A DNA stretch of 64,000 nucleotides from an uncultured Verrucomicrobiota bacterium (GTDB lineage Bacteria > Verrucomicrobiota > Kiritimatiellia > CAJWTS01). Positions 5,212-10,720 of the stretch are shown in pieces. The stretch lies in the NCBI GenBank assembly GCA_913047795.1, contig CAJWTS010000011.1, forward strand, positions 5,232 through 69,231. Reading direction: 5' to 3'. Made by a program: the position numbers and the translations under genes. A model generated the notes under the pieces. The model was not told the DNA's origin. It worked only from the letters and a program-made list of their open reading frames with translations, and ran no database searches. Position 1 is the first letter of the stretch; each line of letters starts with the position of its first letter.

Positions 5212-6531
5212 TCAATCCAGCGCCGGCGGGATGTCGCGCCCATGGGGGTCGCGATCGGGTTGCCGGGTATCCTGCACCAGTTGGTCCTGCATCGCGGTAT
5301 CGGTGATGTGTTCGAGTTGTTCTGCCGTGGGATGAATATGATCCGCGGCAAGATGCAGGTGTTCGACCAGGTAGTTTTCCCAGAGGCGGTGCGCGCGAAC
5401 GAGGCCCCGCGCCTTCTCTCGGCCGCTACCTGTGATGCGGAAGTGTGTGCCCTGACGTTTCAACTGGCCGCCGCGCAGAAGTTGGCAAACGGCGACACGG
5501 ATGTCGAGCGCGCCGGCGCCGATTGCGTTGCCGAGCAGAACCGATGAAACCTCGACGTTGCTTGCGTCAGGGTGCTCCTCGACACGGTAGAGCACGCCGA
5601 GAATGTCCTCACGCAAAATACTAATGCGCAGCGTCCAGAGATGCAGCCAGCGACTAACGAGTCCGTAACGCGGCGCCCCGAAGAGCGCCAGTGTGAACAA
5701 GGCACCCGCAACGACGGCCATCATGCCGGCCGTATTGGTGCTCATGTCGCTGAACCCGATCCATCCCGGCCCCGTGATGGCGAGCAGATGTCCGCCCACC
5801 GCGCAGACGACCGCGATCGCGACGCTGATCAGGACCATCGTGATCAGTCGATCTGTCAGCAGATGCGCCGCGGCGCCGGGAACGATCAACATCGCGATCA
5901 CCAAAATGCTGCCAACACTTTCAAAGCAGGCAACCGTGGTAACGGCGACCAGCGTCATCAGCATGTAATGCATCAGGCGTGCGCTGAACCCCAGCGTCGT
6001 GGCCAGTTCCGGATCGAACGCACTGATGCGAAGTTCCTTAAAGAAAAAAACAACGAAGAGCGTGTTGATCAACAGCACGGCCCCCAGTGCGAGGGCTGAG
6101 CGTGGGATCTCGGCACCGCCAAGCTGCACGGTGTTCAGCGGCGCGAGCTCGATGGCGCCGTACAATACACATCCGGGGTCAAGGTCCACCGCGTTGGCGC
6201 CGCGCACAATGATGATCAACCCGATCGCGAAGAGCGAGGTAAAGACAACGCCCATCGAGGCACTCTCTTCCACCTGCCCGAAGTGACTGATCCATTGCGT
6301 AAATACTGCGGTCAGGACACCGACAATGGCGGCGCCGAGAAACATGGTCATGCTCGCGCGGCTGCCCGTGATCAGGAAGGCGACGGCGAGCCCGGGAAGC
6401 ACCGCGTGGCTGATCGCATCGCCCATCATGCTCATCTTGCGCAGAATGAGAAAGTTGCCCAGCAGGGCACAGGACACGGCGGCGAGTATGCCGGAAACGA
6501 TGATCCATGTATCGAGGACGGTCCAGTCCAT
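5212..6531 (-). CDS. ABC-3 family metal (Mn/Zn/Fe) transporter permease with C-terminally fused DtxR-like repressor domain (YtgCR-like architecture)
   Basis: N-terminal 280 aa is a TroD/MntD/ZnuB-like permease (MGDAISHAVLPGLAVAF motif). The C-terminal ~140 aa aligns to DtxR HTH plus dimerisation regions (EDILGVLYRVEE..., HRLWENYLVEHL..., EQLEH..., HGRDIP). Confidence 0.75.
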   Translation of the reverse strand: MDWTVLDTWIIVSGILAAVSCALLGNFLILRKMSMMGDAISHAVLPGLAVAFLITGSRASMTMFLGAAIVGVLTAVFTQWISHFGQVEESASMGVVFTSLFAIGLIIIVRGANAVDLDPGCVLYGAIELAPLNTVQLGGAEIPRSALALGAVLLINTLFVVFFFKELRISAFDPELATTLGFSARLMHYMLMTLVAVTTVACFESVGSILVIAMLIVPGAAAHLLTDRLITMVLISVAIAVVCAVGGHLLAITGPGWIGFSDMSTNTAGMMAVVAGALFTLALFGAPRYGLVSRWLHLWTLRISILREDILGVLYRVEEHPDASNVEVSSVLLGNAIGAGALDIRVAVCQLLRGGQLKRQGTHFRITGSGREKARGLVRAHRLWENYLVEHLHLAADHIHPTAEQLEHITDTAMQDQLVQDTRQPDRDPHGRDIPPALD

Positions 6532-8066
6532 TACGTGCCTCCCCCTGTCGCGGCCGGCCGGGCGGTGCGGGTGATGACGTGTGGGCTGGGCGGAACGACG
6601 CGCCCCGGAAACTCGGATGCACTCAGCCGCTCCAGCTCGGCAACCATGGCGTGGCCGAGCACGTGTTCGATTTGATCCGCATTGCTGTCGACGTGAATCG
6701 GGGCGATATCCGCGTGCGTGATCAGGTATGTCTCCCAGAGTCGATGATTGCGAACGACCCGTTCGGCTGCCGCCAGTCCCTCGATCGTAAGCTGCACGCG
6801 ACCTCCGCCGCCCGTTCGGATCAGGTCGTCACGCCGCGCGCGGCGCATCGCCCGGCGTAGGACACCGTGGGTCCAGGACTGCTCCTGCATGAGTTCGCCC
6901 AATGGCATGCCGGAGCGCACCACGGCGTCGGTTGCCGGTTTGCCAGGGACGGCATGCTCCTCGTTCCACTCGAATAGCGCGCGCAGCAAGTGCTGGCGTT
7001 CAACCGTGCGCCGCACGCGACGGTGTCGCGCCGTGCCGTGCACCACACCGCGCGCGGATCCAAAGATCATGCTGATGATAAAGAGGCCGGTGGCCACCAC
7101 GACGATGACGGCACCGGCCGGTATGCGCGGGGCGAGCGCGCTGATACAGGCGCCTAGCAGGCAGCTCACTTCACCGATGAGCGCCGCAATCAGAATCAGC
7201 CGGCCGAGCTTATACGTCCAAAACCTCGCGGCCGCCGCCGGAATAATCAGCAGGGCGATCATCAGGATGAGTCCGACCGCCTGCAGGCCGATCACCGTAA
7301 CGACCACGACGAGGCTCATCATGATAATGTCCAGTTTAACGCTGGGGCGGCCCTGCGCGTTGCTGTAGTCCTGGTCGAAACAGACCAGCGAAAACTCTTT
7401 GAAGAAGATTGTGGCAAGAAAGATGACGACCAGCGCTGCGGCGCCGATCAGCCATGCGTCTGAGGCGAGCATGGACGCCGTCTTGCCGTAGATAAAGGAC
7501 TCGAGCCCGGCGGCATGCCCGACGTTGAGTTGTTGAATGATGCCCAATAGGGCCACGCCAAGGCCGAAGAAGACGCTGAGCACGATGCCGAGCGCCGCGT
7601 CTTCCTTGAGACGGGTCTGGGTGCGAATCAGCAGAACGAGACCCATGCCGATCATTCCGAACACGAGCGCGCCGGTCAACAGGCCCGGCAGGAATTTCCC
7701 GCTGCCACCGTAGGACGTCATGACCAGAAATGCGACGCCGATACCCGGCAGAGTCGCGTGGCTGATGGCGTCGCCCATCAACGCGCGCCTGCGCAGCAGC
7801 ATGAAAGAACCGACGATTCCGGCCGCGATGCCGAGCATCATTGATCCAAGTGCGACGACCCGCAGGTTGTAATCGTCGAAGCTCAGTACGCGGACGAGTT
7901 TCTCAACGGTCGGCAGTGCTACCGTGGTATCGGTGATCGACCGTGTTTCGACGGCTTCAGCCCCCGGCAAGGCAAGCGTTAGGCCAAGCAGGATCAATGC
8001 GGCCGTGTACAATCGACGAACGCCGGCCGGCCGGCGGCGCGTATGCTTGTTGTGTCCTGGATTCAT
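6531..8066 (-). CDS. ABC-3 family metal transporter permease with C-terminally fused DtxR-like repressor domain; N-terminal signal-like extension
   Basis: Permease core carries LMGDAISHATLPGIGVAF. C-terminal domain carries RQHLLRALFEWNEE..., HRLWETYLITH..., ADQIEHVLGHAMVAELERL (DtxR HTH plus metal-binding/dimerisation). Stop and start overlap with the downstream permease. Confidence 0.75.
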   Translation of the reverse strand: MNPGHNKHTRRRPAGVRRLYTAALILLGLTLALPGAEAVETRSITDTTVALPTVEKLVRVLSFDDYNLRVVALGSMMLGIAAGIVGSFMLLRRRALMGDAISHATLPGIGVAFLVMTSYGGSGKFLPGLLTGALVFGMIGMGLVLLIRTQTRLKEDAALGIVLSVFFGLGVALLGIIQQLNVGHAAGLESFIYGKTASMLASDAWLIGAAALVVIFLATIFFKEFSLVCFDQDYSNAQGRPSVKLDIIMMSLVVVVTVIGLQAVGLILMIALLIIPAAAARFWTYKLGRLILIAALIGEVSCLLGACISALAPRIPAGAVIVVVATGLFIISMIFGSARGVVHGTARHRRVRRTVERQHLLRALFEWNEEHAVPGKPATDAVVRSGMPLGELMQEQSWTHGVLRRAMRRARRDDLIRTGGGGRVQLTIEGLAAAERVVRNHRLWETYLITHADIAPIHVDSNADQIEHVLGHAMVAELERLSASEFPGRVVPPSPHVITRTARPAATGGGT

Positions 8067-8165
8067 GCGTCCTGGTTCCGGGGCCTCGTTCGTCTCTGCG
8101 GGTCTCCGTTCGGTTGCTGTCGTGACACCGGGATAAAGGCCATTGGATAAGCGGCCGGGCGCCGA

Positions 8166-10009: not shown

Positions 10010-10680
10010 CTCTTTTTCCTGGTTGTGGTCGATACGAATACGTGTGGCGTGGCCTCCTCGCCGAGGCTCAACTCCCGACCATCATGCCGAATGGTTAGCG
10101 AGTCTCCGAAGGGTTCACGATTCACGATTTCGATGTCGGTTCCGGGATATAGCTTCAGGTCTCCGAGGTAGCGTAGAAGATCGGAGTCGTCATCATTCAC
10201 CTCCAGGATCCGGACCGTCTGACCGGCATCGATTTCTGACAATGGCATGGAGTCCACACGGGCGATCTGGCCGTCCTTGGTCGGGATGGGGGAGCCGTGC
10301 GGGTCTGTGCTGACATCGTCCAGGGCGGCGGCCATACGGTCCTCGACGTCATCAGAAAGCACGTGCTCGAGTTTCTCGGCTTCTTCATGTACGCGGTCCC
10401 AGGGAACACCCAGTGCTTTAGAGAGGTACAACTCGACCAGGCGATGATGGCGAATGACCTCCAACGCGATCATTTCGCCGTTCGGATGCAGACGTACGCC
10501 CTTGTAAGGAACGTATTGGATGAGTTCCATTTCGGATGACGCCAGCTTCTGCAGCATGTTCGTAACAGATGCCGGACGCTGACCAAGTTTGTCGGCGAGA
10601 ACGGTGGTGGTTACCCAATTATCGCCATCCTGCAGGTGATATATGTTCTTCAGAAAATTCTCTACAGATTGTGAAATCAT
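10006..10680 (-). CDS. DtxR/MntR family metal-dependent transcriptional regulator with C-terminal FeoA/SH3-like domain
   Basis: N-terminal winged HTH (TTVLADKLGQRPASVTNMLQKL), HRLVELYL dimerisation/metal-site motif, and a C-terminal FeoA-like domain (VRILEVNDD...LYPGTDIEIV). First gene of the minus-strand operon. Confidence 0.8.
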   Translation of the reverse strand: MISQSVENFLKNIYHLQDGDNWVTTTVLADKLGQRPASVTNMLQKLASSEMELIQYVPYKGVRLHPNGEMIALEVIRHHRLVELYLSKALGVPWDRVHEEAEKLEHVLSDDVEDRMAAALDDVSTDPHGSPIPTKDGQIARVDSMPLSEIDAGQTVRILEVNDDDSDLLRYLGDLKLYPGTDIEIVNREPFGDSLTIRHDGRELSLGEEATPHVFVSTTTRKKR

Positions 10681-10701
10681 ATTTATCCTTACAAAACTGT
10701 T

Positions 10702-10720
10702 AATTTAGGGGTACCTAAAT
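10702..10720. promoter_or_regulatory. candidate DtxR/MntR operator (near-palindrome AATTTAGGGGTACCTAAAT)
   Basis: TTTAGG-GGTA-CCTAAA inverted repeat 22 bp upstream of the regulator start, in the divergent promoter region. Resembles the DtxR box consensus TWAGGTWAGSCTWACCTWA. Confidence 0.45.

Follow-up and report, generated by a model that had tools for sequence, protein, structure and literature searches.

The window analysed here is a stretch of 64,000 nucleotides from contig CAJWTS010000011.1 of an uncultured marine bacterium of the Kiritimatiellia (Verrucomicrobiota). Its minus strand carries at 10680..5212 an operon of five tightly packed open reading frames (ORFs) for an ATP-binding cassette (ABC) metal importer, in the order regulator, TroA-like substrate-binding protein (SBP), ATPase, permease 1 (P1) and permease 2 (P2), i.e. 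R-A-B-C-D, which is the order given by an earlier reading made from the letters alone (the sequence-only reading). Both permeases are shown to be single-ORF fusions of an ABC-3 permease of nine transmembrane (TM) helices to a complete two-domain DtxR core, and the first gene of the operon encodes a further, free regulator (REG). We tentatively explain the arrangement as a whole, at a little less than an even chance, by a free regulator that represses the operon and by tails that are built-in metal sensors with feedback on transport. Judged from sequence, the locus would work like a tro operon at the level of transcription, with two transporter-borne candidate sensor modules in addition. Our literature search turned up no account of a double fusion, nor of a fusion next to a free regulator; permease-repressor fusions outside Chlamydiae were known already.

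10006..10680, minus strand: REG, free DtxR/MntR/TroR-type metalloregulator, first gene of the operon, 224 amino acids (aa)
9014..10009, minus strand: SBP, TroA-like substrate-binding protein, 331 aa; ZnuA family PF01297, E 3.5e-78
8166..8993, minus strand: ABC ATPase, TroB/MntA-like, 275 aa; PF00005, E 1e-26
6531..8066, minus strand: P1, TroC/YtgC position, 511 aa
5212..6531, minus strand: P2, TroD/YtgD position, 439 aa

By these components the operon is a Tro/Ytg-type (cluster A-I, ABC-3) high-affinity divalent-metal importer: the SBP belongs to the ZnuA/TroA family, the ABC-3 permeases are of the 9-TM type with Asp-x3-His, and the ATPase is a dedicated one. The imported metal is probably Mn2+ and possibly Fe2+ or Zn2+.

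Domain structure and fold of the fused permeases

Pfam searches placed an ABC-3 domain (PF00950) at residues 67-335 of P1 (E 6e-62) followed by Fe_dep_repr_C (PF02742) at 427-481 (E 1.4e-11; 44.7 bits, cutoff 27), and in P2 an ABC-3 domain at 10-283 (E 1e-43) followed by Fe_dep_repr_C at 367-435 (E 2.9e-20; 72.5 bits). The HRLWE-YL motif was found in both permeases, as NHRLWETYL and AHRLWENYL. The possibility raised beforehand, that the C-terminal part of either permease would give no significant DtxR-family match, was not borne out, as both tails scored well above the gathering score of PF02742. The tails are composed as follows.

6612..7055, minus strand: P1 tail, residues 338-485; PF02742 E 5.5e-12 on the tail; linker and DtxR helix 1 at 338-370, H2 at 389-395, H3 at 400-412, wing at 416-426, metal/dimerisation domain of three helices at 428-485
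5224..5661, minus strand: P2 tail, residues 291-436; PF02742 E 4e-21 on the tail; linker and helix 1 at 291-319 (REDILGVLYRVEE), H2 at 330-337, H3 at 341-353, wing at 357-366, metal/dimerisation domain at 368-421, end motif DPHGRDIPP

An AlphaFold model of the P1 tail, made with a 71-sequence alignment (pLDDT 82, pTM 0.70), displayed helix 1, H2, H3, a two-stranded wing and three more helices. Foldseek superimposed it on DtxR 1ddn_A (TM-score 0.82, rmsd 2.1 A for 125 columns), and IdeR, ScaR, SloR and MntR came next; the sequence alignment of this tail starts at the recognition helix (IdeR residues 40-116). The P2 tail was aligned by phmmer with residues 5-132 of DtxR-family regulators in the PDB (5zr4, E 1.6e-12; SloR, 6e-11), and the model of this tail matched DR2539, DtxR, IdeR and 5zr6 with TM-scores of 0.82-0.84 and rmsd values of 1.5-2.0 A. 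The winged helix-turn-helix (wHTH) family PF01325, on the other hand, was undetected in the P1 and P2 tails even at E<=10, and it occurred in 0 of the 240 fused homologues listed versus all 120 free regulators listed. The claim of a complete DtxR module on each permease is therefore upheld by PF02742, by the PDB alignments and by the AlphaFold/Foldseek comparisons, and is not upheld by PF01325.

The separate third regulator that the sequence-only reading had described as DtxR/MntR-FeoA was confirmed by the domains of REG, which contains the wHTH domain (PF01325, E 6.6e-16), the metal/dimerisation domain (PF02742, E 3.7e-27) and a C-terminal SH3-like FeoA domain (E 1.9e-17); in NCBIfam it scores highest, at 182 bits but under the cutoff of the model, against Thermus-type MntR. 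REG and the tails share with DtxR, IdeR, MntR, ScaR and SloR the fold, the ligand positions, the HRL-E...H...E-H signature and the DPHG-PIP end motif. Unlike the free regulators of the family, both tails lack the third domain (SH3/FeoA), are covalently tied to the membrane and possess an HTH too diverged for PF01325.

The membrane domains resemble those of working transporters. A full-length AlphaFold model of P2 was obtained with pLDDT 88.4 and pTM 0.82, and its membrane domain matched PsaC (7kyp) in Foldseek with a TM-score of 0.82-0.84. PsaC has nine TM helices and a translocation site formed by Asp46 and His50 (PMC8346216). The motif GDAISHA is present in both permeases, with D99/H103 in P1, which correspond to the PsaC pair, and D38/H42 in P2, which are invariant in the orthologue alignment. 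Since both retain the Asp/His translocation site, both appear to be working transporter halves. In the AlphaFold models of both tails, DtxR helix 1 is the continuation of a single unbroken helix that begins at the last TM helix; together with the pTM of full-length P2, this predicts a rigid coupling between tail and membrane domain. No conserved loop or cleavage motif was seen in the tail linkers in either alignments or models.

The other possibility raised for the C-terminal extensions, that they are separate ORFs created by frameshifts, was refuted. A protein identical to P1 (100%, P0121) was recovered from Tara, JGI, ENA and NCBI metagenomes, exact matches of P2 and REG were likewise found in the metagenome protein collection, and two independent assemblies (JGI 3300020389, 22.7 kb, and a Tara scaffold of 75.5 kb) contain all five genes at identical lengths. 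Uninterrupted ORFs and identical gene calls in independent assemblies rule out a frameshift or assembly artefact; with the fusion also kept in dozens of genomes and hundreds of clusters, we give that explanation virtually no chance.

Metal ligands and sequence conservation of the tails

Putative metal ligands are H359, H441, E445, D460, D464, E467 and H468 in P1, and E308/D309, H381, E385, H400, E404, E407 and H408 in P2, positions that we take to match the DtxR/IdeR ligands in the numbering of the DtxR sites. In the 71-sequence alignments, the six P1 positions from H441 to H468 are invariant and those of P2 are invariant or nearly so; H359 of P1 is His in approximately 80-90% of orthologues and Asn in most of the remaining ones. 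REG and the two tails have a common hard-ligand set of His, Glu and Asp, without Met or Cys. This set is as in the Mn-type members of the DtxR family, from which we infer the metal assignment. The equivalents of DtxR H98 and C102 are Asp in P1, and His and Glu in P2 and REG.

Conservation within the modules was compared by column entropy (mean bits) in the same 17 genomes that carry REG, a P1 tail and a P2 tail, with the following values.

REG: helix 1 1.37, H2 1.72, H3 1.19, wing 1.20, domain 2 1.11
P1 tail: helix 1 1.44, H2 2.44, H3 1.99, wing 2.08, domain 2 1.06
P2 tail: helix 1 1.15, H2 2.58, H3 1.94, wing 2.04, domain 2 1.46

In the tails, the part that would read DNA evolves about 2-fold faster than the metal/dimerisation part, which is not so in REG. 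The net charge from H2 to the wing was +3.6 ± 2.4 in P1 and +3.9 ± 2.2 in P2, versus +1.3 in REG. Retention of the charge but not of the sequence in this region fits non-specific binding of a polyanion, either the DNA backbone or the acidic inner leaflet. From the fast-evolving HTH, the lack of PF01325, the invariant ligands and the kept charge, we suggest that the tails would act as sensors and not as sequence readers.

Distribution and evolutionary history

The sequence-only reading had named the chlamydial fusion as the established case and had known of no described double fusion with a free regulator. The fusion is not confined to Chlamydiae: according to PMC5599777, which cites Thompson et al. 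2012, orthologous permease-repressor fusions are reported from 11 bacterial phyla, so that a fusion outside Chlamydiae was known before, and even the double fusion proved common. A scan of one genome per species gave 266 relatives, of which 80 loci were kept, and these were annotated by comparing stop-to-stop ORFs with the domains of the window (loci are numbered with the prefix L). The order SBP-ATPase-P1-P2 is kept throughout the 80 loci. A tail was found on P1 in 76 of 77 loci and on P2 in 41 of 81; about 40 of the 80 species-level genomes have the double fusion and about 40 loci have P1 alone fused. Double-fusion loci belong to Phycisphaerae, Tepidisphaerales, Planctomycetales, Chthoniobacterales, some Opitutales, Kiritimatiellia and a few bins labelled otherwise, and those of the Planctomycetales include a cultured carrier, Bythopirellula polymerisocia Pla144 (L058). 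The P1-only loci, with Thalassobacterium as a cultured carrier, come mainly from Opitutales (Puniceicoccaceae, Coraliomargarita, Lentimonas, Thalassobacterium), and reproduce exactly the chlamydial YtgC/YtgD pattern. A free DtxR regulator adjoins the operon in 17 of the 80 loci, all of them double-fusion loci; only in L001, the closest relative, is it the first gene on the same strand as in the window.

Beyond these genomes, the best 120 homologues of P1 and the best 120 of P2 all combine PF00950 with PF02742, and are annotated merely as 'metal ABC transporter permease'. The P2 tail alone matched 567 clusters at E<=1e-10 among 1.84 billion representative proteins, and in nearly all of the best 150 of these 567 clusters it is the C-terminal end of the protein that is matched.

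The two tails had been taken for tandem paralogs. P1 tails, P2 tails and free regulators instead form three separate clades with mutual distances of 0.81-0.86, and this similarity of distance indicates that both fusions are old. A recent tandem duplication of a fused permease was accordingly rejected.

The P1-only loci also bear on a further interpretation, in which the tails are mainly structural, i.e. a handle for assembly or dimerisation of P1 with P2 or of transporter with transporter, and regulate nothing in response to metal. Conservation in the tails is highest in the dimerisation domain, and P2 of the Opitutales can dispense with a tail, both of which would agree with such a role. Ligand positions that are invariant, or nearly so, across distant lineages would be unexpected if metal binding were irrelevant, and we regard this interpretation as very unlikely.

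Two groups of loci call for a comment. L019 (278-2715) is the sole locus in which P1 is apparently tail-less; there the P2 frame extends approximately 345 codons upstream over P1, so that a frameshift in this metagenome bin is a likelier cause than genuine loss of the tail. The loci L026, L027, L032, L033, L034, L037, L055 and L061 come from bins labelled Burkholderiales, Vulcanimicrobiota, Nitrospinaceae, Sumerlaeia, Vicinamibacteraceae, Spirochaeta, Zhongshania or Yoonia; these loci may be mis-binned contigs or cases of horizontal operon transfer.

The operator and the free regulator

The upstream palindrome that had been pointed out in the sequence-only reading is present and is perfect.

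10703..10720, no strand assigned: operator, 18-bp palindrome of 7-4-7 layout, ATTTAGG-TACC-CCTAAAT, 23 bp upstream of the REG start codon

No other exact occurrence exists in the 64 kb, where one further match has two mismatches. The palindrome is situated between a TTGACA hexamer upstream and the start codon of REG. The experimentally defined TroR boxes of Treponema denticola (ATTTTGA-TATA-TCAAAAT) and T. pallidum (ACTTTGA-TGCA-TCAAAAT) have the 7-4-7 layout in common with it (PMC2628430).

In the related loci, the region directly ahead of the operon, or ahead of the regulator next to it, holds operators of two classes. Class A, TTTAGG-N4-CCTAAA, is found in the window and in L001, L009, L024, L027, L028 and L032. 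Class B, (T/C)TTTGA-N4-TCAAA(A/G), which is identical to the experimentally defined Treponema boxes, occurs in every single-fusion locus of the Opitutales and also in many of the loci with a double fusion. The recognition helix of REG, RPASVTNMLQKLA, is of a class found solely with TTTAGG..CCTAAA boxes. The helix of the free regulator reads (P/M/G)AS-x-T-x-M in 6 of 6 class A loci and PGT-x-T-x-M in 9 of 9 class B loci, a covariation in 15 of 15 loci as a raw count without phylogenetic correction. A rule for TroR-type regulators appears to follow, with PGT-x-T paired with TTTGA half-sites and (P/M/G)AS-x-T paired with TTAGG half-sites. In the P1 and P2 tails, the recognition helices vary inside each operator class and are not partitioned by class. 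As the operator class tracks the helix of the free regulator and not those of the tails, we take REG to be the probable operator reader.

These data speak to the proposal in the sequence-only reading of layered feedback through three metal-specific repressors, one per imported metal. The presence of three DtxR modules in one operon, and the Asp of P1 against the His and Glu of P2 and REG at the H98 and C102 equivalents, are what such a division of labour would lead one to expect. It finds little room, however, in a locus with one TroA-type SBP and one operator, which covaries with REG alone; the HTH of the tails is their fastest-evolving part, and the three modules have the same hard ligands. 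We therefore consider three metal-specific repressors very unlikely.

The Treponema troABCDR operon is a close counterpart in terms of transcription. As in the window, it has two ABC-3 permeases, a DtxR-family regulator within the operon and an 18-bp 7-4-7 operator, and the SBP of the window is closest to TroA; many of the related loci carry the TroR box itself. The window differs in that its regulator comes first and not last, its half-site ends in AGG and not TGA, its regulator helix reads PASVT versus PGTAT, and its permeases are both fused, whereas troABCDR is described as separate transporter components with a stand-alone troR.

Three further observations concern the regulatory regions. 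Divergently from the operon, at 10811-12816 on the plus strand, an NAD-epimerase/DUF1731 gene and a ferrochelatase gene are found. Both genes share with the operon the intergenic region that bears the palindrome, and a step of haem synthesis may thus be under the same repressor. In L008, L013 and L016 (Tepidisphaerales), a TroR-type box at approximately 3460-3660 lies upstream of a divergent free regulator, about 0.9 kb from the SBP gene, and this regulator appears, from the position of the box, to be autoregulated from a separate site. Many single-fusion Opitutales loci carry a half-site triplet, ACTTTGA-N4-TCAAAGT-N4-AATTTGA, that overlaps the start of the SBP gene; three half-sites in a row suggest two overlapping dimer sites. 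Examples of the triplet are the following.

L044, 4484-4512
L047, 4373-4401
L040, 4772-4800

Proposed mechanism and its alternatives

We propose a mechanism in three steps. The first, which we judge probable, is that metal-loaded REG would bind the palindrome and repress the operon; REG may also affect the divergent epimerase/ferrochelatase unit. In two-gene ABC-3 systems the permeases form a heterodimeric membrane domain. Such a domain of P1 and P2 would put the tails side by side at the cytoplasmic face, and the overlap of the P1 stop with the P2 start (TAATG) suggests coupled, roughly 1:1 synthesis. The second step, for which the chances seem to us evenly divided, is that filling of the metal sites would close the adjacent tails into a DtxR-type P1:P2 dimer. 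The third step is the least certain, and we put it forward with some doubt: closure of the tails would provide a fast post-translational feedback, in which the helical linkers hold the last TM helices fast and stop import (trans-inhibition), as a complement to the slower transcriptional repression by REG. The basic and poorly conserved winged-helix surfaces of the tails would then bind a polyanion non-specifically, either the inner leaflet or the DNA backbone, and no specific operator.

MetNI and ModBC are among the ABC importers subject to trans-inhibition. In the same metal-importer family as the system described here, the Zn-sensing domain of ZnuC locks ZnuBC shut (PMC12236471). The likeness to ZnuBC consists of a candidate substrate-binding cytoplasmic domain attached to the transporter. 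In ZnuBC, MetNI and ModBC, however, the sensor is on the ATPase and has a non-DtxR fold, whereas the candidate sensors of the window are on the membrane subunits, and the comparison is an analogy only.

The chief alternative is that the tails behave like chlamydial YtgR, which the sequence-only reading had cited as a precedent: both would be released by proteolysis, dimerise with metal as homodimers or as a P1:P2 heterodimer, and act as sequence-specific repressors that add further transcriptional layers. The precedent holds as far as architecture is concerned. C. trachomatis YtgABCD belongs to the same superphylum, has the same order of SBP, ATPase, permease and permease that follows the regulator in the window, and its first permease, YtgC-YtgR, the equivalent of P1, has a C-terminal DtxR-like domain without SH3. 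The repressor domain of YtgC-YtgR is reportedly cleaved to a 28-30 kDa product that represses the ytg promoter, with protease and stimulus not known (PMC5599777, PMC7755916). The window departs from the chlamydial system in that P2 is fused too, that the operon begins with a free DtxR/MntR-FeoA regulator, which the operator matches, and that P1 starts with a signal-like segment. It is for chlamydial YtgR alone that cleavage and DNA binding have been demonstrated.

Several points weigh against the mechanism that we propose, and several of them are also what the release of YtgR-like repressors would lead one to expect. By analogy, the behaviour reported for YtgR, the sole characterised relative, which is cleaved off and represses its own promoter, would argue for release, and the YtgR operator reportedly aligns with the TroR operator. 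In Opitutales, a canonical TroR box lies upstream of operons that have no free DtxR-family gene within 8 kb, and here the P1 tail could be the repressor. The winged helix of approximately 70 aa has long been retained in both tails, where it is complete and confidently predicted, and with its arginine-rich H3 and conserved positive charge it has, as modelled, the look of a DNA binder. P1 alone is fused in Opitutales and Chlamydia, which implies that a P1:P2 heterodimer is not a universal mode of action. The mirror-tree comparison of P1 with P2 tails was significant (partial r 0.37, p 0.001), yet the tails correlated equally with the free regulator (partial r 0.35 and 0.53); the P1-P2 signal is no stronger than these and is non-specific, and we rejected it as evidence for a heterodimer. 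Finally, scans for sigma-70 promoters and for terminators gave nothing above chance.

Other properties of the locus are difficult to reconcile with release. Between the recognition helices of the tails and the operator class there is no correspondence, and conservation within each tail is lowest in the HTH. The one palindromic operator near the operon is of the free-regulator type, and with a free regulator as first gene the tails would be redundant as repressors. Moreover, the models show the linker as an unbroken helix, and neither a conserved loop nor a motif at which cleavage might occur was seen. On balance, we regard the release of both tails as repressors as rather unlikely.

Our preferred reading of the tails as built-in sensors can be carried one step further. 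The tails would be a never-released, membrane-tethered P1:P2 heterodimer in which a transcription-factor fold was co-opted as an allosteric metal gate; the free paralogue would keep DNA binding, and YtgR would be a secondary return to the repressor role after loss of the free regulator. We hold this extended form to be on the unlikely side.

Further features of the permeases and of the operon

The sequence-only reading had described a signal-like N-terminal extension on P1, and this proved to be an arrangement common to about two thirds of 120 orthologues. P1 consists of the signal-like N-terminus, a SITDT motif, the ABC-3 domain, the helical linker and the DtxR core. The N-terminal extension, MNPGHNKHTRRRPAGVRRLYTAALILLGLTLALPGAEA, is followed by the conserved SITDT motif.

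7953..8066, minus strand: P1 residues 1-38, signal-peptide-like or anchor segment with a basic stretch, a hydrophobic core and AEA
7926-7940, minus strand: SITDT motif of P1, SITDT(S/T), approximately 20 residues ahead of TM1

A SITDT-type motif was found in 67 of the 120 P1 orthologues, with a near variant in most others; the hydrophobic segment that precedes it accounts for the two thirds given above. An ABC-3 permease with nine TM helices has its N-terminus on the face opposite to the cytoplasmic C-terminus, and a signal-like extension on P1 therefore makes sense. By this topology, the SITDT motif should be on the periplasmic side. No WWW motif was found in the sequence of P1 or P2.

The remaining components of the operon agree with an importer of the Tro type. 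The stop codon of REG overlaps the start codon of the SBP gene in an ATGA. The SBP most resembles T. pallidum TroA (1toa/1k0f, E 7e-77), and its alignment to TroA showed that the metal-ligand stretches GVDPHLY, DPHLWMD, TAHDAF and FSDAMG are kept; from its N-terminus (...LLLATSC) it is probably a lipoprotein. The top NCBIfam matches of the ATPase are Mn and Mn/Fe ABC ATPases, under the equivalog cutoffs. Pfam gave no additional domain match in the ATPase, unlike the trans-inhibited importers, whose ATPase has a substrate-binding regulatory domain at its C-terminus.

A perfect 8-bp stem, GCGCCGAC/GTCGGCGC, was observed at 8159-8178 across the ATPase stop codon, before a gap of 99 bp to P1; the overall folding of this gap is unremarkable (z-score -0.78). 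A scan of the 64-kb window with Rfam detected no riboswitch and no other RNA family. Downstream of the operon and convergent with it, at 2713-5188 on the plus strand, are two genes whose products have no Pfam match, a protein of 643 aa and a hydrophobic one of 183 aa.

Biological significance

Chlamydial YtgC-YtgR has been the sole studied case of a permease-repressor fusion, in a host that lends itself poorly to genetics. This type of fusion is part of a large free-living family, which has a fuller version, in which both permeases are fused and a free regulator is present, and a reduced version that has the chlamydial pattern. The cultured carriers B. polymerisocia Pla144 and Thalassobacterium are tractable systems for the YtgCR mechanism. 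As a by-product, the family yields what appears to be a simple helix-to-operator rule for TroR-type regulators. The free, the P1-fused and the P2-fused modules offer a three-way comparison of what a DtxR-type core may do in metal uptake, be it repression, transport gating, or both.

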